A DNA stretch of 49,979 nt, filler included, from Stramenopiles sp. TOSAG23-2 (lineage: Eukaryota): assembly GCA_900128395.1 (NCBI GenBank). It is 2 parts of 2 records of this genome, joined end to end, with 100 filler letters (N's around TTAATTAATTAA, not from the genome) between each part and the next. Parts side by side here need not be neighbours in the genome. Positions count along the whole stretch, not along the records: positions 25,127 to 49,979 come from LT649459.1; 1 more part is not named here. One strand, 5' to 3'. Shown here piece by piece: positions 3,779-35,762 of this stretch (position 1 is its first letter; every line of letters begins with the position of its first letter). Both the position numbers and the translations under genes were made by a program. The notes beneath the pieces are model-generated. The model saw nothing but the letters and a program-made list of their open reading frames with translations. It did not search any database and was not told the origin of the DNA.

Positions 3779-4564
3779 GTCTCGTAATATAATAATGATT
3801 CCAATAAAATTAATCTATAAAACTTGCAGCAATAATATTGTAACATAAGTTCGATGTAATGTTATATTTATACTTATGTATACTGGTATAATAAATATAA
3901 ATATTATTTTTATGTAGTATTTTATTATTATGTACTATTGCACTACCTAGTCTATTTTTTAACAAATTATTATTATTAAAGGCTGAATATATTACTCGTA
4001 TAGAATTGAAATTACAAATTACAACAAATAATTAATTACAACAACAAAAAAATAACTAAAATTAGTATTATTATACAGTAGAGTCCAGGTAGTCCAGTAG
4101 TCGTCTAGCACTCTATTAACTATTATTAATTTTATTATTTCAAAAAATCGCTTATGGTAAGCTGGTATTATCTAAGCCAGTTCGGCTAGAGCTAGGAGCT
4201 AGCTATAATAGCTGGCCCGCTGGCTAGCTCTAGCAAGGAGCTACACAAGCTCTAGACACAATCTTATTGGTGAACAAAAAAAAAAACACCGCCACGCCCC
4301 CACCCGCCGACTACCAGACTACTACTATTATATTAGTCAATAAAAGTTGAATAATATAATAATAATAATTGTTAGTAAATATTTAAAGACACTGTTGTAC
4401 CAAATATACAACTTATACATAGAACAATATTATTTCATTGTTAATGTATGTACAATATTAAACAGGCACGCAGAAATATAAAAAGTAATATATTTGTGCT
4501 GGTATTTGAGTACTTTTACAGGGAAACGTAGAATAATTGTATATTTATACAAACATATACCACA

Positions 4565-7500
4565 ATGTTAAATCGTACTATTGCTAGTTACTTTATTTTC
4601 TGTTATCTAGTTTTTCAGCAACAAGTATATGAGATCCACGCATTTTGTCGTGCACTTCCTTGTAAGTAATATATTTATAAATATATCATTGTTCTCGGCA
4701 CTACTAAGTTTAAATTGTTTTCTAACATACAAATTGTTTTATTGCATTAAATACTACATAAAGCCGGTGGTCCATTATCTGCCACGGCGCTGTTGAGACA
4801 ACACACTCCCGATGGAGAAAATTGTATGTTGAGAATACATCATCCAACACAATCAGATGCTACGGCAACGGCAAACACAATTGCTAGAGGTATATTATTT
4901 TTAGATACTGCAGCCTCAAACGCAGCTGTTATACAGGTAATTCCAAATACAGTTGGAAGTGCTACAGAAGGAAGTGCGCCGTTGATGGAATTTTTTGTCG
5001 GTGGTGACGGGAACGCGTTTAAATGGATGACGATTAGTACCATGGGAAATATTAACGTACTAGGTGCTTCGTCAACTATGACAGTAACAAATGATTTTAC
5101 TGTAAATGCTGATACCATATTTGGTAATTTAAAAACAACAGATACAATGACAGTAAACTCTGTATCCACGTTGATGGGAGTCACAAGTATACAAAATACG
5201 TTTCATGTTAAAAACCAAGATGCTAGTACAACAATGTTTACAGTGACTGAGAATAACGGTAATGTAGATGTTTTAGGTGACAGTGCACAAATGACAGTAA
5301 CAAATGATTTTACTGTAAATGCTGATACCATATTTGGTAATTTAAAAACAACAGATACAATGACAGTAAACTCTGTATCCACGTTGATGGGAGTCACAAG
5401 TATACAAAATACGTTTCATGTTAAAAACCAAGATGCTAGTACAACAATGTTTACAGTGACTGAGAATAACGGTAATGTAGATGTTTTAGGTGACAGTGCA
5501 CAAATGACAGTAACAAATGATTTTACTGTAAATGCTGATACCATATTTGGTAATTTAAAAACAACAGATACAATGACAGTAAACTCTGTATCCACGTTGA
5601 TGGGAGTCACAAATATACAAAATACTTTCAATGTGAAAAACCAAGCTGGTAATACTGTGCAATTTACGGTTGCTGAAAATACCGGTAACACAGAAGTATC
5701 TGGTACATTGGATGTTACCGGTGCAACTACACTTAGTAGTACAACTAGTTCAGTTGGTAATTTTGATGTAGCTACTAATAAATTTACTGTTACTGCGGCA
5801 AATGGAAATACTGCTGTGGCTGGTACATTGGATGTTACCGGTGCAACTACACTTAGTAGTACAACTCGTTCAGTTGGCAATTTTGATGTAGCTACTGATA
5901 AATTTACTGTTACTGCGGCAAATGGAAATACTGCTGTGGCTGGTACATTGGATGTTACCGGTGCAACTACACTTAGTAGTACAACTCGTTCAGTTGGCAA
6001 TTTTGATGTAGCTACTGATAAATTTACTGTTACTGCGGCAAATGGAAATACTGCTGTAGCTGGTACATTGGCTGTTAGCGGTGCAACTACACTTAGTAGT
6101 ACATTGGCTGTTACCGGTGCAACTACACTTAGTAGTACAACTCGTTCAGTTGGCAATTTTGATGTAAATACTGATAAATTTACTGTTAATGCAGGAACTG
6201 GAAATACTGCTGTAGCTGGTACATTAGATGTTAGTGGCACCACTACATTAGCAACCGTATCTTCAGGTACATGGCAAGGAACTTGCGTTGCAAATGCTTA
6301 TGTTTGCGATTCAACTCAATGGATAGACACTGGCGGTACAGGTTTAACAAAAACCGGGACTTCGTTGAATGTAGATGCTTCCCAAACACAAATAACATCT
6401 GTTGGTACTATTGGTGCAGGTACATGGCAAGGAACTTGCGTTGCAAATACTTATGTTTGCGATTCAACTCAATGGATAGACACTGGCGGTACAGGTTTAA
6501 CAAAAACCGGGACTTCGTTGAATGTAGATGCTTCCCAAACACAAATAACATCTGTTGGTACTATTGGTGCAGGTACATGGCAAGGAACTTGCGTTGCAAA
6601 TAATTATATTTGCGATTCAACTCAATGGATAGACACTGGCGGTACAGGTTTAACAAAAACCGGGACTTCGTTGAATGTAGATGCTTCCCAAACACAAATA
6701 ACATCTGTTGGTACTATTGGTGCAGGTACATGGCAAGGTTCCAAAATTCAAGATAATTACATCCAATCAGCAGGGACTTGGAATAGTAAGGTTGGCACTG
6801 GTGGTACAGGGTTAACGAAATCTGGAACTACATTAAATGTAGATGCTTCCCAAACACAAATAACACAAGTGGGGACTATTAATTCAGGTACATGGCAAGC
6901 TTCTTCAATTCAAGATTCCTATATTGCATCCCAAGGAACTTGGCATGGTAAAATTGATACTGCTGGAACTGGTTTATCCAAGTCTGGGACTACGTTGTCA
7001 GTGAGCATGACAAGCAATGTGGAATATAGGATAGGTGATATTGCTGCGGGCAATGAAGGCGATTTTCAATCAAATTCGGCTACGTATGCAAGTAAAGGAA
7101 GGCTTGCTGCAACTTGGATTTATAGCAATGCTATAGAGGCACCAGATGAGCGGGGTTCTGCAAGCACAGCTATCATGATTGGTGATTCAGGTTGGAGCAG
7201 TGCAGATGGTGATAAGATCATGTTTGTGACTTCTGGGCGCACAAGCACTTATATAGATAGTAATGGAGACTATAACCCCTCAGACATTCGATTGAAAACA
7301 AATATTGAACCTTTTCCTGCAAATATATCTGCCTCAGAAATCTTGAGTAATGTCGAAATATTTTCATACAATATATTGATTAAAGACGATAATGGCACGG
7401 AGACTGCCCATGAAACGCGCGTATGGGGTTTCTCTGCTCAAGATTTAGCATCGAAGACTGAAAATATTGTTCGCGAAGGTGGGGAAGATAAATTTAAAGA

Positions 7501-7777
7501 GCCATGGACTTACAGTGGCAAAAGTTTAGAAGGATTCTTTGTCCAAGCAATAAAAGAGTTAAAATTAGAAAATAAAGAGCTCAAGTCCGAAATAAAAGAT
7601 TTGAAGCAACGTAGGCGATTGAACCCAGATGATTCTGGTAAAGCCCATAATTCGCCGAAAGAGTCCGTGGATACATTTTCAAATATGCTTGCCATTATGG
7701 AACGAATGGAAACGTTGTCGTTTCAGAATACAGAACTTTTGCGTCGGATTGAAGAGTTGGAAAAAAAACATATATAA
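4565..7777 (+). CDS. Secreted tail-fibre-like repeat protein with C-terminal intramolecular chaperone (Peptidase S74/ICA) domain; 2 exons (4565-4661, 4764-7777)
   Basis: ATG 4565 encodes a signal-peptide-like MLNRTIASYFIFCYLVFQQQVYEIHAFC. A GTAAGT donor at 4662 and AAG acceptor ending 4763 splice in frame into the 994-aa ORF. Three Thr/Gly/Val-rich repeat blocks follow, then SDIRLKTNI (Ser codon 7280), WGFSAQDL and a coiled coil. Confidence 0.8.
4662..4763 (+). other. Spliceosomal intron (102 nt, phase 1)
   Basis: GTAAGT donor, TTCTAAC branch-point-like motif near 4720, AG acceptor. Removal joins T+CC (Ser) and restores the frame of the downstream ORF. Confidence 0.8.
5078..6900 (+). repeat. 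Intragenic tandem repeat blocks with periods 213, 120 and 153 bp
   Basis: 213-bp units start at 5078, 5291 and 5504. 120-bp units start at 5702, 5822, 5942 and 6062. 153-bp units have the ATGGCAAGG landmark at 6271, 6424, 6577 and 6730. Units are nearly identical at nucleotide level. Confidence 0.95.
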
Positions 7778-11261: not shown

Positions 11262-12030
11262 ATTGTTGTTATTATTATTTACAATTTCGTTGTTGTTGGT
11301 TTTATTGTCCGTGGTTATTAGTTTGTTTTATAACTATAAATTTGAATTTTTTCTATATCTCTGTGTATGCCTGGTAGATTATATGGTCATTTACATGTAG
11401 ATTACTATGGATTAAGATGTTGGCCTTTGGCAACCTTTGGCCTTTTTGCATGCAACTAACGTGAACTCTTTTGGATGATATATGTGATAATGTGTCATAT
11501 TTTGTACTTAAATTACTAACACTACTGTTTTCGACTTCTATCACCTATCACCATAATATCAGCGGACACCCTATGTAATTTCTGTAGTCGTCTACTAATA
11601 GAACTAAGCTTATTTCCACAGAAGTGCTTTTCATATTTTCAGTACCAAATCCGGGGGAATTACAAAGTCTACAACAGGTACAAAAATGAATGAACAGCAA
11701 CAGCCTGGGACAGCAAGACAAAGTGCAAAGACGACGACAGCCAGACGACACAGCATAAATGCACTATTGGCGTACTATTACACTGTACGGATTATTATAA
11801 TAATAAGAATGATATTGTATGTGCTGTATACAGGTATAATAAAAATACAAAAAAAAAAGTATGGTGAATAATAATCCAAAACTAATATATATATACTAGT
11901 ATATAGTATTTTAAATAATAAATAATATATAAATTGAGATATTAATTAGAATGGAAAAAAGAGTTATTAGAAGTAGAATTAATAATCTCTATCATAAATA
12001 CGTACACACACATTGTATACATTTAGGAAG

Positions 12031-19638: not shown

Positions 19639-20470
19639 ATGTGTTGTATAGTATATGTATTAAAAAAAATTGATAACTAAAACAAAAAAATAATAAAAAT
19701 GTATATAATTTCGTATAAATACTTCAAAGGAGGAGAATGGATATAATATAATATATGTATATATATATATATATCGTATTTCACAATAAAATAGATAAAA
19801 CCGAAGATGAACGAAGCTATACTTATCTTTGATTATCTATCTTTCTTTCTTTCTATGTATGTATCATGTATATATCATGTATGAATCTCGTGTATTTCTG
19901 TTATACAGTAGTATTCAATCTATATGTCACATATATATCAGTATTCATTTTACCAGCTGGGCCAGCTAACCAGCTAACCGCTAACGTCTATTATAGAACT
20001 GTACCAGGTAGTCTAGCTAGAGCGCTAGCTGGCCCGCTGGGCTAGAGCTAGCTAGAGCTAGCCCTGGGCTAGCCCAGCTAGCTCCTCATAGAGGTAATTT
20101 GCTTATAATAGCAGGTACAAGTACTGTAAATAGTCTATTATAACACTTTACACAGTATACGCATCCTTAGACATCCAATGATCCAATGATCTAAATGGAC
20201 TAATAAGTTGCCAAGATAGAGCAAGATGAAGACAGCAGAGAGGAGCGATGATCTCTCAATTTTATTGTGTGTTACTGCTATTATACTACACGCACCTGAC
20301 ATCACAATGCTATGTAATGCTAATAATCATCAGTGCATAATAATAATAAATAATTCTAAGCACCTAATAATAATTAAAAATGAATAAATAGCTATCCAAC
20401 TAAGAAAGATAATGATTACTAACTATACAACTGTAGCTACGATACCAGGCAGAGAAAAGTATATAGACAT

Positions 20471-25126: not shown

Positions 25127-25521
25127 AAGGCAAAATTATTAGTCACGAAAAAAGCCAAAACTCGTTGCCAACTTCATACGGCACGATAATATTACAAATT
25201 AAAATAATAATGGATTTGTGTGGTCCGGTGGTCCTGAAAAACATATACCAGATTAGAAAATATAGATTTAATGAGAACCGATGCAAATAGGGGAAATGGA
25301 CATAGTAATATATACATTCGATGAGATATAGAAAAAGGAACGAATAAAAATAGTTATATTCACACATTATACATACATATATACATTTATTCTATTGTAA
25401 TTAGAAGAAAAATTCGAATTAGCAATATATATATATATACACACACATTCAAATTATAATAAATCAATTTTATAATTTATAAACAAAAAAAAAACACACA
25501 CGCGCACACACAAAATAAAAT

Positions 25522-29823: not shown

Positions 29824-29878
29824 CATGTATTTAAGATTTCACGAGTCAGGGTACGAAAACACCACATCACAGGCAACT
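29824..29878 (+). repeat. 55-bp direct repeat, left copy (upstream of GH86 gene)
   Basis: CATGTATTTAAGATTTCACGAGTCAGGGTACGAAAACACCACATCACAGGCAACT; 51/55 identical to 33577-33631. Confidence 0.95.
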
Positions 29879-30418
29879 ATTAAAACAAATAATCCAGGAT
29901 CTTTTTCTCTATTTCTAATTTCTTTTTATAAAATCCAAGTTAGGGCCTAACTGTGGCGGCCAGCTGGGCCAGCCCAGCCAGCAGAATACTGGCAGACCGC
30001 AGACTATAATATTTCAACTATATATTCTAATTCGAACTTTAACTTTACCAGGCCAGCAGCCAGCAGATATAGCTATTAATAGCTATAATAATAACTGGCT
30101 AACCAGCTGGCCAGCTTAAGCTAGCTATTAATAGCTAACTTTAACTTCTTTATTCTTGTTGGATAATAATAATAATAATAAAATATACCGTACTTTAGTT
30201 GAAACTTATTATTATTATACTAGTAATAATTATTACTATTAATAATAATTATTAATTATTTCAAAAAATAATAATGTGGTATTATAATAATCAGAAATCA
30301 GAAGAGAGGTATATAATAATATAATAATTTCATTAGCAGAATATATAATTCTAGAATAATAGTGCAATAATAAGAATAATAATTAAAAACATCAGCAGCC
30401 ATATCAAAATATATTTAA

Positions 30419-33418
30419 ATGAAGGTATGTCTGCTAACTTTAATAATTAGCTTAGTCATCCCGTCGCTTGCCTACGAACAGCCAACTTGTCGCGCGCATG
30501 AGGGAACTGTCCTCTCCTTCTGCAATGGCTCTCCGTTCCGAAAATGGGGCGTAGGCCCCGAGGGTGAGGAGCAGGCAATCGCGAACTGCCAGTGGGCTGC
30601 TAATAGTCAAGAGTGCATACGCAACACGACCGTTGTCCTCGATCCGTTCACGCTCCGCTCGATCGGCAGGGGTGCAAATGCCACCATCGATCGCATGCAG
30701 TGGTTTGGTGGGCACTGGAACATCTACAAAAGCGGAATTCAATGGCGAGACGAGGATGTGGAGCTCTTCCACGACCGCTACCACGCGCACCCAGGCCGAT
30801 CCTTCTACGTATCCTACCGCATGTCACAATGCGTGGAGGATTCTGCTCGCCCGGGCTTTGTGGACGTGTCCTCGCTCATCGCCTCCTGTGCCAATGCGCG
30901 GCAGTGGAGTCAACTCGCCTGGCCCCTAGATGCAGTGGACATGATCGTCAGCTCCAAGCCTGACCAGCTGTATCCAAACTCCTGTGGCCATCGCAATGGC
31001 CAAGCTCCTAATGGCTTCATGCCAGGTTCGCACGCGGCGGCGGCTGAATTCTTTGCGCTTTATTACCAGCACTGCATGCCACCCACAGCGCAGAATCGGG
31101 TGTTCATGGAGGTCTCCAATGAGTGCGATGTTAAGACCTTCCCTACCGCGTGCAATTCGCCCTGGTCCGAAATGGTTAAGCTACATGCTGCGGTGGGCGA
31201 CGCGATCCACAACGCATACGACAATGCGACAGCGTTGCCACGCCCCATTGTCTGTGGCCCAACCGAAGCTTTCCCCGAGTACCAACGAAAGGACTTCCGT
31301 ACATGGCGCGCTGGCGGGCAGCTCTCCGAGTTTCTGGCAGGCACCGTCCGTAACTCGTCTATCGACTGCTTGAGCACACATATCTACTCGACATACCAGG
31401 TGACGGCCAATGCCACAGGGCGTGATTCGAACACAGATCCGTTCAGCTCCAATTACGTCGCGCGCGAAGTAAATAATGTGGACGCCATTCTGGATATGCA
31501 GGAAGCAGGGATGACGGCAGAAGGGGCTGCGGCGGCAATACTCATTTCCGAGTATGGTGCGGCTTTCAAGGACAAACTACTCTACTACCACCCGGCGCAC
31601 GATTTCTGGATCTTGCGTGCCGTGAACACAATGTTGATGACATTTCTGGAGCGGCCGGATCGTATCCTGAAGGCGCTGCCCTTTATCGTAGATAAGGCTA
31701 CGTGGCACGTGCAGGGCAGTCAAAACAATGCCTCGCAGTCCTACCCACAGGCAATGTGGCGCAAAGTGAACAACGAGTGGCAGATTACACACCTGCACAA
31801 GTTCTATGGAATGTGGCGCGACTTCGGTGGGAAGCGCTTCCCCGCACGAAGCGACCATGCCCAGGTACAAGTACATGCGGCAGTGAGGCACGTAGCTGCA
31901 CTTGCGAATTGGACGGTGGCAGTGAATAATGCGGACCATCTTGTGCCTACGAGGGTGCATCTCGCCTGGCCCCTGCTACCCACAGGCGCCACCATCGTTG
32001 GTGTCAGCGTGCGAAGGTTGGCGTGGGACTCGGTGGAAGAAATACCCACGATGACGGATACTCATGAAGAACAGAGTGTGTTGCCGACGATACTCTTGCT
32101 TGCCCCCGCCGAGCTTGCTCTCGTAACCGTGCACGTTGAGGCGGCAGCAGCAGCAGTGCTTGCCGCGACTAAGCGCATTAACACGCTCACGTTTCCCAGC
32201 CCACAGCAACTTGTACCGCTGCCCACCACGGCAGCCGCCGCCAACAACGTTCCCTTCCGCTTCCTCGGGGTGCTCGCAGGCGGTGCCACGCCCCTTAGTG
32301 TTCGCGTCAGTCTGGGTGGGCCGGCTGAAAACCGCACTGCCATCCTCATGAAGCTTAACATCGTAGTGAACGGCGTGGCTTGTGTTGTCGATCCTACGCA
32401 GCATATCGGAGGTCAGCAGCATAAATCGCCGCAATTGGGTTCCTTTTTTGGAGGTTTGGAGGTGCTGGTGCCAATAACCGCAGTGACGCGAGGCCCAAGG
32501 CCGGGATTTGATGCAATCGTGAAGGTGTGGTCCAACATGGCGGTAGATTTGGAAGGCGATCCTGTGGTGGTGAGTACGGTGGCACTGTTGGTAGAGAACA
32601 CGACAACAATCACGACGTTCACCACATCAACAGAGCTACCTACCACTACGTCGCCAAGTGTTAGTAAGACCACATCAACACCAGCGCAGCCCAGTATTAG
32701 TACCACCACATCATCAAGTATTATTAGTAGTACCACATCAACATCCGAGCCATCCAGTAATTCTACCGCATCATCAAGTATAAGTACCACCACCACGTCA
32801 TCAAGTATTATTAGTAGTACCACATCAACATCCGAGCCATCCAGTAGTTCTACCGCGCCATCCAGTAGTTCTACCGCATCATCAAGTATAAGTACCACCA
32901 CCACGTCATCAAGTATTATTAGTAGTACCACATCAACATCCGAGCCATCCAGTAGTTCTACCGCGCCATCCAGTAGTTCTACCGCATCATCAAGTATAAG
33001 TACCACCACCACGTCATCAAGTATTATTAGTAGTACCACATCAACACCAGAGCCATCCAGTACAAGTACCACCACATCAATACCAAAAACTAGTACACCA
33101 AACCCGTCAAGCATTACACCCGTGCCGTCAAGTGACGCTATTATTACGACATCTAAAGGAAACGTACAAAACACCACTGTTGTTTCTGTGAAAGATTCTA
33201 ATACACTATTTTTATGGATTTTCATTAGTGTGATCGGTGTGATACTTGTTGTAGTGTGCTGTTGTGGATTTTTGACCTTACGAGGAATAGATAGAAGACC
33301 CGATCATATACATAAAAACTTGAATAGCTGGAAAATGTTAACACCTGTTGAGCAGAGTGGCAGTAATGCATACAGAGATGGCCGAGGGGTAGAACTGGGG
33401 ACATATCATAAATCATAA
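30419..33418 (+). CDS. GH86-like beta-porphyranase/beta-agarase with signal peptide, Ser/Thr stalk and TM anchor
   Basis: Motif order matches GH86 porphyranases as I recall them: EVSNE, AFPEY...F..W, DCLSTHIY, N.DAILDM.E, ISEYG, FLERPD.I.KALPFIVDKA.WH, KFY.MW....G.R. Both clan GH-A glutamates are present (codons 31121 and 31550). Confidence 0.8.
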   Translation: MKVCLLTLIISLVIPSLAYEQPTCRAHEGTVLSFCNGSPFRKWGVGPEGEEQAIANCQWAANSQECIRNTTVVLDPFTLRSIGRGANATIDRMQWFGGHWNIYKSGIQWRDEDVELFHDRYHAHPGRSFYVSYRMSQCVEDSARPGFVDVSSLIASCANARQWSQLAWPLDAVDMIVSSKPDQLYPNSCGHRNGQAPNGFMPGSHAAAAEFFALYYQHCMPPTAQNRVFMEVSNECDVKTFPTACNSPWSEMVKLHAAVGDAIHNAYDNATALPRPIVCGPTEAFPEYQRKDFRTWRAGGQLSEFLAGTVRNSSIDCLSTHIYSTYQVTANATGRDSNTDPFSSNYVAREVNNVDAILDMQEAGMTAEGAAAAILISEYGAAFKDKLLYYHPAHDFWILRAVNTMLMTFLERPDRILKALPFIVDKATWHVQGSQNNASQSYPQAMWRKVNNEWQITHLHKFYGMWRDFGGKRFPARSDHAQVQVHAAVRHVAALANWTVAVNNADHLVPTRVHLAWPLLPTGATIVGVSVRRLAWDSVEEIPTMTDTHEEQSVLPTILLLAPAELALVTVHVEAAAAAVLAATKRINTLTFPSPQQLVPLPTTAAAANNVPFRFLGVLAGGATPLSVRVSLGGPAENRTAILMKLNIVVNGVACVVDPTQHIGGQQHKSPQLGSFFGGLEVLVPITAVTRGPRPGFDAIVKVWSNMAVDLEGDPVVVSTVALLVENTTTITTFTTSTELPTTTSPSVSKTTSTPAQPSISTTTSSSIISSTTSTSEPSSNSTASSSISTTTTSSSIISSTTSTSEPSSSSTAPSSSSTASSSISTTTTSSSIISSTTSTSEPSSSSTAPSSSSTASSSISTTTTSSSIISSTTSTPEPSSTSTTTSIPKTSTPNPSSITPVPSSDAIITTSKGNVQNTTVVSVKDSNTLFLWIFISVIGVILVVVCCCGFLTLRGIDRRPDHIHKNLNSWKMLTPVEQSGSNAYRDGRGVELGTYHKS
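32690..33080 (+). repeat. Mucin-like Ser/Thr stalk with 108-bp tandem units
   Basis: TTCTACCGCATCATCAAGTATAAG recurs at 32761, 32869 and 32977. Confidence 0.9.
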
Positions 33419-33576
33419 AATAAAAAAGATTAAAAAAATACTCTTAGAAAAAGTATGTGTAGTAAAATAATAATATGTGAGAACAAATTAAATTTAATAT
33501 TTTACGAAAAGTTATATTAATTTTAATTTTAAATCTATTGACACACCCAGTCTGTACACGTCCCTTCGTACATGAA

Positions 33577-33631
33577 CATGTATTTAAGATTGTACGAGTC
33601 AGGGTACAAAAACACCACAGCACAGGCAACT
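33577..33631 (+). repeat. 55-bp direct repeat, right copy (downstream of GH86 gene)
   Basis: CATGTATTTAAGATTGTACGAGTCAGGGTACAAAAACACCACAGCACAGGCAACT; 4 mismatches to the left copy. Confidence 0.95.
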
Positions 33632-33894
33632 CTCTCTCAATTTAATTTTTCGGTGCATGTTTGTGACATCCTTTTTCTATAATGCATACATTCCTCTGCA
33701 TGATGTTTTCTGAATCAAGATTTAAATATAATATACACAACTCGCGAACACACATGATTTTGTACATAAAACACAACATATATAGTATATACATATACAC
33801 ATACAAATGAGAACATTTTACGCGTATTATTTTCGCACAAACATCATATATATATATATATATATATAAGAAAAAAAACTTCATTTTTTTTTTT

Positions 33895-35010
33895 TTATGC
33901 TTCAACTGTTTTTACAGTATTTGATTCATAACCTAATTTATTCACAATTGCAATCGTTGTTGTTGACATATTTAATGTATAAAAATGTAAACCTGGTACT
34001 TTTTTACTAGCAATTAATTTTTGACACATTTCTACACAATAATCAATACCAAATGCTTTTACTTTTGATTTAAGTTCTGGATCATCGGATGGCAATGCTT
34101 CAAATGCAAGTAATTTTTCATCCAATTCTTTTGGAATTCTAGATTTACAGAATCCAGTCATTCGTCTAAAACCACCTAAATTACCAATCATCATCAATCC
34201 TGGTAAAATTGGCACGGTAATACCAATTGAACGACAATCATCGACGAATTGAAGAAATACATCAACATCGAAAAACATTTGTGTAATAATACAATTTGCA
34301 CCAGCATCAACTTTTTCTTTTAAATATGCCAATTCCTTTGTATAATCTGCATCTTTACATACAAGAATTTCTGGTTCGCCCGTTTCTTTATTTTTGGATT
34401 TAGAATGTCTTTTTACTTCCGATGGCGTTAAACTTCCTAAACCACCTTCTGCTTCGGTAATCACTGTCATTGCATTTGGATGGCCTTCTGGATAACCAGC
34501 ACATGTAATATGGAAATAATCACCATGTTCTTTACGAATGTATTGGATCAAATCCAACGCGCATGAAAATGCTAAATCAGTAGCTTCCCATTTGTCTTGC
34601 CCAGCTGGCGGATCACCACGTAATGCAAGGATATTCGTGATACCATTTGCTTTTGCATCAACTAAAGCTTTGGAAATTTTATCCCCTACAACATTTGTAC
34701 AAGTTAAATGCATATTTGGAACTACATTGTATTCCTTTTTCATTCTAGTACATAAATCCATGGTTAAATCAGACGTAGAACCACCTGCACCCCAGGTTAC
34801 ATCTGCAAATAATGGATTGTACGCCTTTAATCTTTCCAATGCTTTAAAAAGTTTTGGAATATCTACATCTTTTTTGGGAGGGTAGAATTCAATGGATACA
34901 AACGGTTTTGAACTTTGTTTCGATAACTCACTTTCAATTAATTGACTAATTTTTAAGTTATCATTTGTTTTTAATGTTGTCGTCGTTTCGTTTTTCGTAA
35001 TAGCAGACAT
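33895..35010 (-). CDS. MTHFR: Methylenetetrahydrofolate reductase (catalytic domain only)
   Basis: SIEFYPPK, DVTWGAGGST, MHLTCTN, NILALRGDPP, AGYPEGH, ITQMFFD, GLHFYTLN. Confidence 0.97.
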   Translation of the reverse strand: MSAITKNETTTTLKTNDNLKISQLIESELSKQSSKPFVSIEFYPPKKDVDIPKLFKALERLKAYNPLFADVTWGAGGSTSDLTMDLCTRMKKEYNVVPNMHLTCTNVVGDKISKALVDAKANGITNILALRGDPPAGQDKWEATDLAFSCALDLIQYIRKEHGDYFHITCAGYPEGHPNAMTVITEAEGGLGSLTPSEVKRHSKSKNKETGEPEILVCKDADYTKELAYLKEKVDAGANCIITQMFFDVDVFLQFVDDCRSIGITVPILPGLMMIGNLGGFRRMTGFCKSRIPKELDEKLLAFEALPSDDPELKSKVKAFGIDYCVEMCQKLIASKKVPGLHFYTLNMSTTTIAIVNKLGYESNTVKTVEA

Positions 35011-35762
35011 GTTTTTTTGTTTTTTTTTATGTTATTGTTTCACTTGTTTTTTGTTGTTTTGTTGATTTTGATATAAAAAGTATGTATGCTTCCCAAATTA
35101 GAAATTCACCAGTTGCTACTTCACTTTGTGTTTTTTCTTAAGTTCTATATATGACGCTAGTATTTTTTGTGTAATCCATACCATAATAATCTGATAAAAT
35201 GTGTATCTCATTTATAATCCATTATTACATTAATGATATGATAAAATATTGTAGAGATGCAATTTATCCGATTATTATGGTATGGATTAGGTTACTTATT
35301 CACCACGAATTTTAGAGGAGGGCACGAGGAGCTTTATTAGACCTGCTGGGCCTGTGGAAGTGGTAGAGATGCTGAAATTTTACGTCGTATTATCTTCTAT
35401 ACTATTAAGTATACTAAAAAACTTTGTACCGAAAATTGTCCTTACTTCACAGAAAATTACTTTGCTTTTTGTTTAAAATAAACTCAGGAAACAACAACAA
35501 AAATGACAAAATGACAACCATGATTAATTGTATTTGATAGGTAATATAGTGTGTAAATACCGAAAACTGTCCAATCGCTGTATTAGAAGAAATCTCAGTC
35601 ACAATCAGTCTTACGCACTTTAACTTTTTTATAAAAAATATAAAAAAAGATATTTCCATTCCAGTATATAAGTGAACAGAAGTATAGTATAGAACAAGTT
35701 TCAATAATAACAAATAATAACAAATATCTAATATAAACGATTTAAAATAGTCTATAACAACC

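Follow-up and report, generated by a model that had tools for sequence, protein, structure and literature searches.

The window analysed here is a stretch of 49,979 nucleotides from Stramenopiles sp. TOSAG23-2 (GenBank assembly GCA_900128395.1), positions 25,127 to 49,979 of which come from record LT649459.1. On its plus strand, at 30419..33418, it carries an intact gene for a glycosidase of family GH86 whose GC-rich body stands among AT-rich genes. With a probability somewhat above even, we read this body as having been acquired from a GC-rich eukaryote by a stramenopile ancestor, rebuilt as a tethered enzyme and kept since. GH86 proteins have been treated as bacterial tools against red-algal galactans, and the characterised GH86 enzymes are bacterial. 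A sequence-only reading of the same stretch had proposed a recent transfer, from a bacterium or a GC-rich eukaryote, into a gene recast as a cell-surface enzyme; the foreign look of the composition has held, while neither the recency nor the bacterial source is retained.

The gene comprises the following parts, numbered along the window:

30393..30418, plus strand: probable 5′ untranslated region; a contig of metatranscriptome X15 starts at 30393, and homology with the related locus L002 starts at 30396
30419..33418, plus strand: complete open reading frame (ORF); the contigs from RNA runs are collinear with it, with 0 joints inside
30419..30472, plus strand: predicted signal peptide, aa 1-18, recognised by inspection; its first 14 codons are AT-rich
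30461..32595, plus strand: GC-rich island with GC of about 0.58, GC at third codon positions (GC3) of 0.65 and codon usage unlike that of the host
30482..30616, plus strand: four-Cys module, aa 22-66, running from C24 to C66 with a WGVGPEG core, placed by alignment and present in the ingroup only
30620..31738, plus strand: GH86 (β/α)8 catalytic barrel, from the AlphaFold2 (AF2) model, Foldseek and phmmer against the PDB
31121..31123, plus strand: E235, probable acid/base (N234-E235), aligned with the EViNE motif of 8h97 and 5ta1
31550..31552, plus strand: E378, probable nucleophile (S377-E378-Y379), aligned with the ISEY Glu of 5ta1
31757..32590, plus strand: two β-sandwich (Ig-like) domains, from the secondary structure of the model; the Foldseek match spans full GH86 chains
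32588..33193, plus strand: Ser/Thr/Pro-rich stalk of 203 aa (S 37%, T 28%, P 8%)
33206..33280, plus strand: single predicted transmembrane (TM) helix, aa 930-954, recognised by inspection and followed by RGIDRR
33281..33415, plus strand: predicted cytoplasmic tail of 45 aa with conserved KN-x-NSW and (V/M/I)EQ motifs

The ORF is open over 999 codons plus the stop, with no intron seen. In consecutive 500-nt steps from 30501 to 32500 the GC content is 0.586, 0.560, 0.566 and 0.590, and it is 0.468 at 32501-33000; outside 30501-33000 it never exceeds 0.414, the value for the entire window being 0.341. Along the ORF, in steps of 50 codons, GC3 amounts to 0.56-0.76 over aa 1-725 and to 0.28-0.40 from aa 726, and in the 20 further ORFs of the window that are 150 aa or longer it ranges from 0.184 to 0.308, with the pyruvate kinase gene at 0.215. 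None of the 50 Leu codons of the body is TTA and none of its 38 Arg codons is AGA, as against 48% and 29% in host ORFs, and both G-ending and C-ending codons are raised relative to the host. On the 5′ side the composition changes between codons 14 and 15 (about 30461), which belong to the signal peptide, whose GC3 is 0.38 (13 codons); on the 3′ side it changes at the junction with the Ser/Thr stalk (about 32595). The stalk, TM helix and tail together have a GC3 of 0.34 and use both TTA and AGA, which fits a host origin of these parts. The body is thus unlike the host genome in both composition and codon usage, as is looked for in horizontally acquired DNA. The intact frame, and the GC-rich catalytic region followed by an AT-richer TM and tail region, had already been described by the sequence-only reading and are borne out by these counts.

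The protein is a GH86-type glycosidase. Searched with phmmer against the PDB, it matches 8h97 (7.8e-22), 5ta1 (1.4e-16), 5ta0 (3.5e-16) and 4aw7 (3.7e-15), and the AF2 model of aa 20-725, built on an alignment of 30 sequences, reaches a pLDDT of 88.6 and a pTM of 0.90. The first seven Foldseek matches of this model are all GH86 (E from 2.8e-44 to 2.6e-39, TMt 0.79-0.84, 675-707 columns), the first match outside the family being a GH51 at 1.5e-15. According to excerpts of PMC5849685, BuGH86 consists of an (α/β)8 barrel followed by two Ig-like domains and has E322 as its nucleophile. The same arrangement of barrel and two Ig-like domains is present in the model, and the ISEY Glu of 5ta1, with a chain index of 325, corresponds to E322 once the 3-residue tag offset worked out from the cloning description is taken into account. 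Both E235 and E378 are conserved without exception in alignments of 16, 30 and 26 sequences. The family assignment and the two catalytic Glu motifs, both claimed earlier from the DNA, are therefore confirmed by phmmer, Foldseek and the invariant Glu pair. No Pfam family matched the protein at E up to 1; the Pfam models for GH86 are PF18206 and PF18040, the former of which is matched by 16 of 26 members of the clade described below (best E 5.1e-11).

The enzyme is presumably a β-galactanase of the agarase/porphyranase kind. It would act as a retaining endo-glycosidase of clan GH-A type, with E235 as acid/base and E378 as nucleophile, and would cleave β-linked galactans, either those of the agar/porphyran class or related sulfated galactans of marine origin. 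At the −2 subsite, excerpts of PMC5849685 give T82 for the agarase BuGH86 and F77 for the porphyranase BpGH86A. The present protein has F129 at this position, as in the porphyranase, and a Phe there is nearly invariant in the eukaryote clade, while K180 stands at the Q138/H114 position of the bacterial enzymes; these two residues may be regarded as hints of specificity only, which define no substrate. The position of BuGH86 M396 could not be placed, chain index 399 being a Glu in the phmmer alignment.

The four-Cys module has the core F-C-x-G-x-P-F-x-x-W-G-[IV]-G-P-E-G, is modelled with a pLDDT below 50 and matched no Pfam family. It occurs in two to three tandem copies in other secreted-looking proteins (P0078, P0121, P0129 and P0131), in one of which it adjoins, as judged by eye, ShK-like Cys-rich stretches. 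At the other end of the protein, Tandem Repeats Finder detects 2.9 copies of a 108-nt unit with 98% identity at 32745-33062 within the stalk, and other members of the P0001 cluster are 926, 933 and 962 aa long, compared with 999 aa here, with a different repeat number in the region 32661-33062. Since these near-identical copies of 926-999 aa differ in their stalk repeats, stalk length is polymorphic in the population. In the alignment, the present protein, L002, L003, P0002 and P0003 all carry KN-x-NSW and (V/M/I)EQ in their tails, and these motifs may be sorting signals. With the signal peptide and the TM helix judged by eye, a type I membrane ectoenzyme on a mucin-like stalk is plausible.

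Of the 15 outgroup proteins whose ends were read, 13 lack the C-terminal TM anchor and either stop right after the last β-sandwich or carry a different C-terminal extension; their N-termini show a signal peptide only, or are cut, and the Cys module is found in none. The absence of the anchor from these 13 relatives makes the recasting as a tethered enzyme plausible. Members of the family may have become tethered on more than one occasion. In P0034, a protein of 794 aa from the eukaryote-type clade, there is an apparent N-terminal hydrophobic segment followed by a Ser/Thr run, which may represent an independent tethering of the same enzyme by its opposite end.

The gene is expressed, as contigs covering it are present in RNA libraries. 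Six contigs of metatranscriptome X15 match the region, all of them within 30393-33387 and none in the flanking bins, and contigs of the oligo-dT run X18 cover 32235-33413; DNA may be present in RNA libraries, and neither expression level nor transcript ends can be obtained from such contigs.

A scan of metagenomes gave six loci, L001 to L006. L001 is collinear with window positions 30230-35182, including the MTHFR gene, and is judged to be a conspecific or near-conspecific copy of the same locus (dS 0.014 in the GH86 body and 0.0215 in MTHFR, flanks 1.6-2.4% diverged). The body of L002 is 92.5% identical to that of the window at the amino-acid level and 91.1% at the nucleotide level, and its GC island of 0.55-0.61 stands in a background of about 0.33 with flanking ORFs at GC3 0.21-0.31. 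L003 is 78.7% identical in amino acids, its island of 0.56-0.59 standing in a background of about 0.41 with a flanking GC3 of 0.42-0.46. In the window, L002 and L003, respectively, GC3 is 0.65, 0.69 and 0.61 in the body and 0.34, 0.38 and 0.45 in the stalk, TM helix and tail taken together. The order of signal peptide, Cys module, GH86 domain, stalk, TM helix and tail is common to L002 (92.5%), L003, P0002 and P0003 (77-79%), and the GC island is seen in L002 and L003, the two other lineages read as DNA. Since the same architecture and the same island recur in several lineages, the chimeric gene predates their split and is not recent. The recent acquisition proposed earlier is therefore abandoned: at least three other related lineages share the chimeric gene, and L002 and L003 share the GC island as well. 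The same reading had set vertical inheritance of orthologues across the lineage against its own proposal, and orthologues do exist in at least three related lineages, which bears this out in part. Body dS is 0.26-0.30 between the window and L002 and nominally about 1.3 between the window and L003; with dN/dS of 0.09-0.17 in the body and 0.44-0.93 in the stalk and tail, the body appears to be under purifying selection in at least four lineages.

The host is a stramenopile: its pyruvate kinase shares 61-65% identity with the enzymes of oomycetes, a labyrinthulomycete and brown algae, with further clusters at 99, 85, 84 and 71%. With the GH86 body as query, 18 proteins came up in a word-indexed search: one cluster at 100% identity, P0002 and P0003 at 77%, both with the full architecture, thirteen proteins at 38-52%, and P0018 and P0017 at 23-25%. 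An exhaustive search gave 451 proteins at E ≤0.001, of which 46 were at E ≤1e-30, and a profile search gave 25 hits and no additional named eukaryote. Cluster look-up put names to P0011 and P0015 with their cluster members (single amplified genomes, SAGs, of Picozoa), P0024 (the choanoflagellate Didymoeca costata) and P0030 (EukProt). No named stramenopile homologue was present among the 18 hits, the 25 profile hits or the 27 clusters looked up, whereas the search with pyruvate kinase gave many named stramenopiles. Among viral contigs, 82 pattern matches were obtained and 0 confirmed. A protein atlas cluster named ‘beta-porphyranase A-like’ is 97% eukaryotic and commonest in Mollusca, which is taken as a lead only.

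The 64 rows of the tree are the present protein, L002 and 62 hits taken from the 109 that are 500 aa or longer (47 being left out); it was calculated under LG+G4 with a short search and SH-aLRT support. The present protein, L002, P0002 and P0003 form a clade (support 100) nested in a 9-row clade (100) with P0004, P0005, P0006, P0008 and P0009, five proteins in which Gly, Ala, Arg and Pro make up 0.36-0.43 of the residues. An 18-row clade (100) that also includes the Picozoa group encloses this clade and is itself enclosed in a 29-row clade (99) holding Didymoeca costata and another EukProt protein; several intermediate clades carry no labels. The eukaryote-type GH86-like proteins that share this last clade with the present one (Picozoa SAGs, D. 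costata, P0004-P0016) are 33-57% identical to it, and the motifs HPGRSF, SSK, EV-NEC, SEYG and RPDRILKALPF are invariant in the eukaryote-type clade. A sister-like DNA fragment, L006 (n=1), has 63% GC. From the amino-acid make-up, this single fragment and the position in the tree, we infer a GC-rich eukaryote as the donor. Of the foreign origin claimed earlier, the foreign-looking composition stands, and the tree sets the protein beside sequences from GC-rich organisms in place of a bacterium.

According to the reading that we prefer, the Cys module, the barrel and the two β-sandwiches would have passed from a very GC-rich eukaryote, with no direct bacterial source, to an ancestor from which a small group of marine stramenopiles, AT-rich and uncultured, descends. 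At its 5′ end the body would have gained an AT-rich start of the signal peptide and at its 3′ end a Ser/Thr stalk, a single TM helix and a short tail, so that an enzyme that is normally soluble and secreted became a type I membrane enzyme above the plasma or food-vacuole membrane. Co-translational export, probable O-glycosylation of the stalk and anchoring by the single helix would make the catalytic head stand off the cell surface and, after engulfment, face the food-vacuole lumen. Thereafter the gene would have undergone purifying selection in at least four lineages, chromosomal relocation, expression and drift toward host composition.

Such a drift is seen in the polarised differences. When polarised by L002, the third-position differences between the window and L001 are 7 of 7 from GC to AT; among 19 variants in L001 and the contigs, 17 can be polarised, 12 of them from GC to AT and 5 from AT to GC, and the synonymous third-position variants polarised in the same way number 9 from GC to AT and 2 from AT to GC. 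Between the window and L002, 112 of 652 strong/weak sites differ, which under pure decay gives an ancestral GC3 of 0.756. For the 298 fourfold sites compared between the window and L003 (strong in both 125, weak in both 52, mixed 121), a pure-decay fit gives about 0.91; a donor from the sister group rich in Gly, Ala, Arg and Pro could plausibly have had a GC3 near 0.9. The simplest reading of these values is slow amelioration, with about 60% of the excess GC retained and an acquisition not long before the lineages split. Polarisation of the differences between the window and L002 by L003 (29:10 and 21:18) was discarded as uninformative: 29/(29+18) is 0.62, equal to the GC3 of the outgroup, so that L003 is effectively random as an outgroup. 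A calculation according to which neutral decay is impossible was also rejected, as its dS values assume stationarity.

Several points weigh against the acquisition as we describe it. The bodies of the window, L002 and L003 contain TTA 0, 0 and 1 times and AGA 0, 0 and 2 times, and such nearly identical body codon usage in three lineages at a nominal dS of about 1.3 means that the GC-rich state may be maintained. The Cys module, although specific to the ingroup, is itself GC-rich, so either the direct donor had the module or the model is incomplete. P0004, from the sister group, has a C-terminal TM helix of its own, and anchoring might therefore predate the transfer. The claim of the sequence-only reading that the enzyme had been recast in a tethered form is made plausible by the 13 of 15 outgroup relatives that lack the anchor and weakened by the anchored P0004. 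In the tree, 19 rows deviate in composition and the deep branches are to be taken with care; the sister sequences are metagenome proteins without a taxon, which limits the assignment of the donor accordingly, and only hit lists in which few entries are named speak for the absence of the gene from other stramenopiles.

A possibility unlikely in our estimation, but to be taken seriously, is that this is an old vertically inherited eukaryotic GH86 gene whose body is kept GC-rich by a gene-specific force such as synonymous-site selection, GC-biased gene conversion or a local mutational regime. The body GC3 values given above stand beside about 0.22, 0.27 and 0.45 in the hosts, the strong/weak state of the fourfold sites is almost randomised between the window and L003 and yet both are GC-rich, TTA and AGA hardly occur in any of the three lineages, and the family is spread over distant eukaryotes. 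Against this, the recent polarised synonymous changes (9 versus 2 and 7 versus 0) run as expected of decay, and the same tables fit pure decay from a GC3 of about 0.9. The composition boundaries coincide with domain boundaries within one transcript, which selection for expression would not yield, and the pyruvate kinase gene of the same window keeps its GC3 of 0.215. The body searches and the 27 clusters also gave no named stramenopile homologue.

The surroundings of the gene bear on whether it is still mobile. Its neighbourhood includes the following elements:

29824..29878, plus strand: 55-nt direct repeat, upstream copy, identical to 33577-33631 at 51 of 55 positions
29944..30127, plus strand: clusters of CCAGC/GCTAGC-type motifs, a probable host-type promoter-associated element, read directly and by pattern count
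33577..33631, plus strand: 55-nt direct repeat, downstream copy; the window has 2 copies versus 0 expected

The pattern CCAGC-N3-CCAGC has 4 matches in the window versus 0 expected, at 4211, 19962/20028 and 30103, that is, in three intergenic regions. Clusters of CCAGC, GCTAGC and GGCCAGC are seen at 4180-4240, 19950-20090 and 29944-30127, two of these regions lying between divergent ORFs, and are a candidate promoter element of the host organism. As similar clusters stand in two other intergenic regions of the window, the GH86 gene has a host-type upstream region, which had been pointed out from the sequence alone and is sustained by the pattern count. The flanks of L002 (10 kb on each side) and L003 (3.9 kb and 1.5 kb) gave no blastn or tblastx match to the window or to each other, those of L002 coding for a P5A-type ATPase, ankyrin proteins and an astacin; with no flank shared, the gene is placed at three different loci in the window, L002 and L003. 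A non-coding element of 55 nt at 11491-11545 of the window recurs at 16097-16150 of L002 with 92.7% identity and contains the branch-point-like TACTAAC, which suggests that the two hosts are related.

Relocation may mean that, following a single primary acquisition, the cassette can still change its locus or pass among related stramenopile species, an idea to which we attach a low probability. It would account for the lack of any shared flanking gene at a dS between the window and L002 of only 0.26-0.30, and for the 92.5% identity of their GH86 bodies compared with 85% and 84% for the nearest non-conspecific pyruvate kinase clusters. In addition, a 132-nt contig of the oligo-dT RNA run X18 joins position 29934 to 33553 with ‘ATA’ in between, skipping 3618 nt, and may represent an allele without the cassette, that is, without the upstream region and the gene; a 94-nt piece of it has 1 listed difference from the window, suggesting that such an allele would be conspecific. 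However, this joint is seen in one short contig of an RNA run with 35 letters on its shorter side, and neither features of a transposon nor a target-site duplication were found. None of the pyruvate kinase relatives can be assigned to the hosts of L002 and L003, and the window and L001 share one locus at which GH86 and MTHFR have similar dS (0.014 and 0.0215). The left edge of the skipped part adjoins the palindrome GTTAGGGCCTAAC (29939-29951), which consists of two inverted telomere-like units.

The 55-nt flanking repeat was considered as a target-site duplication and rejected, because L002 and L003 lack it and the contig that skips the cassette keeps both copies; the 14-mer core of the repeat is absent from L001-L006. 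It was likewise rejected as a structured RNA, with fold z-scores of −0.21 to 0.60 and no Rfam match (at the gathering threshold Rfam gave 0 matches in the window and L001-L003). Short contigs of RNA runs lie over 33558-33622 at raised depth, as if from a dispersed or expressed repeat.

A wider reading, tentative and in our opinion doubtful, is that a eukaryote-type branch of GH86 is spreading laterally among marine phagotrophs, including Picozoa, choanoflagellates, uncultured stramenopiles and perhaps molluscs, and that the stalked form of the stramenopiles sits on a still-moving cassette which is present or absent within species and may cross between them. If so, tiny bacterivores would own a tool for the sulfated-galactan gels of seawater.

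A recent direct transfer from an agarolytic marine bacterium, which would agree with the bacterial origin of the characterised GH86 enzymes and with the foreign composition, is very improbable. The bacterial-type relatives P0018 (Echinimonas), P0017 and P0344 (the latter two with type IX secretion system (T9SS) tail domains) are 22-25% identical to the protein by BLASTP, P0017 reaching 29% by HMMER, and P0018 and P0017 stand in a separate 21-row clade outside the 29-row clade, while relatives at 38-57% come from eukaryote sources. The eukaryote clade as a whole is about 19-25% identical to the characterised enzymes. As bacterial GH86 proteins are only 22-30% identical to the protein and fall outside the supported eukaryote-type clade, a bacterial donor is not supported, and this part of the earlier proposal has been given up.

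An assembly chimera or a contaminant, in favour of which there is the sharp composition change only, is scarcely credible, since L001 runs collinearly through both transitions into MTHFR, a DNA contig of run X4 spans 30255-32731 with 12 differences and, together with a contig of X5 (33017-33438), crosses the transitions, another contig of X4 covers 33417-33820, the reading frame is continuous, and the stretch or part of it is present in 20 runs from 13 studies. With L001 and the X4 and X5 contigs taken together, assembly error is excluded and integration in host DNA is seen independently of this assembly, which disposes of the doubt about unsupported junctions raised by the sequence-only reading. 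The X4 and X5 joints with 20-21 letters on the shorter side were disregarded as weak.

Compared with the bacterial enzymes BuGH86 (5ta1), Aga86A_Wa (8h97) and BpGH86A (4aw7), the present protein shares the fold and the catalytic Glu pair and shows significant sequence similarity. It differs from them in being eukaryotic and nuclear, in its identity of only 18-20% in structural alignments and in adding the N-terminal Cys module, the mucin-like stalk, the TM anchor and the tail, and it lacks the carbohydrate-binding and T9SS domains of its bacterial relatives. From the eukaryote-type outgroup proteins whose ends were read, it is set apart by having both the Cys module and the C-terminal anchor. 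Animal brush-border glycosidases such as sucrase-isomaltase are stalked as well, with type II topology. As in sucrase-isomaltase, a Ser/Thr stalk of O-glycosylation type beside a single anchor would hold the glycosidase off the membrane, but the present protein belongs to an unrelated family, with the opposite predicted topology and no homology.

Doolittle's ‘you are what you eat’ proposal is said to envisage gene transfer from prey to predator in phagotrophs. A GC-rich island among the AT-rich genes of a bacterivorous protist, with relatives in marine eukaryotes, resembles what such a transfer would leave; unlike a dead fragment, the gene is intact, expressed, common to several lineages and apparently under selection. 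If the preferred reading is true, small phagotrophs share directly in the breakdown of marine polysaccharide gels, with GH86 present in abundant uncultured flagellates. The locus would also be a rare natural time series of eukaryote-to-eukaryote transfer, with a foreign body and host-type promoter and targeting parts; as amelioration appears less than half complete and the gene is found at different loci in several lineages, it would become possible to measure in a protist how fast composition decays and how fast a gene relocates.

As far as titles and abstract openings tell, no paper describing a eukaryotic GH86 was found among those listed, and the papers on GH86 and protists were all bacterial. 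In PMC5778133, GH86 does not occur in the text, nor do GH86, agarase, GH16, GH50 or GH117 in the supplements examined; the family may nevertheless have already been counted in that study, under ‘agarose’. An assembly pipeline that removes contigs of divergent GC is described in excerpts of PMC8163842, and pipelines filtering by GC would tend to lose such genes when they lie on short contigs.

Elsewhere in the window, residues 830-886 of a 994-aa ORF at 4793-7777 match Peptidase_S74 (endosialidase chaperone; E 1.8e-07), a self-cleaving module of the phage-tailspike type in a eukaryotic gene.

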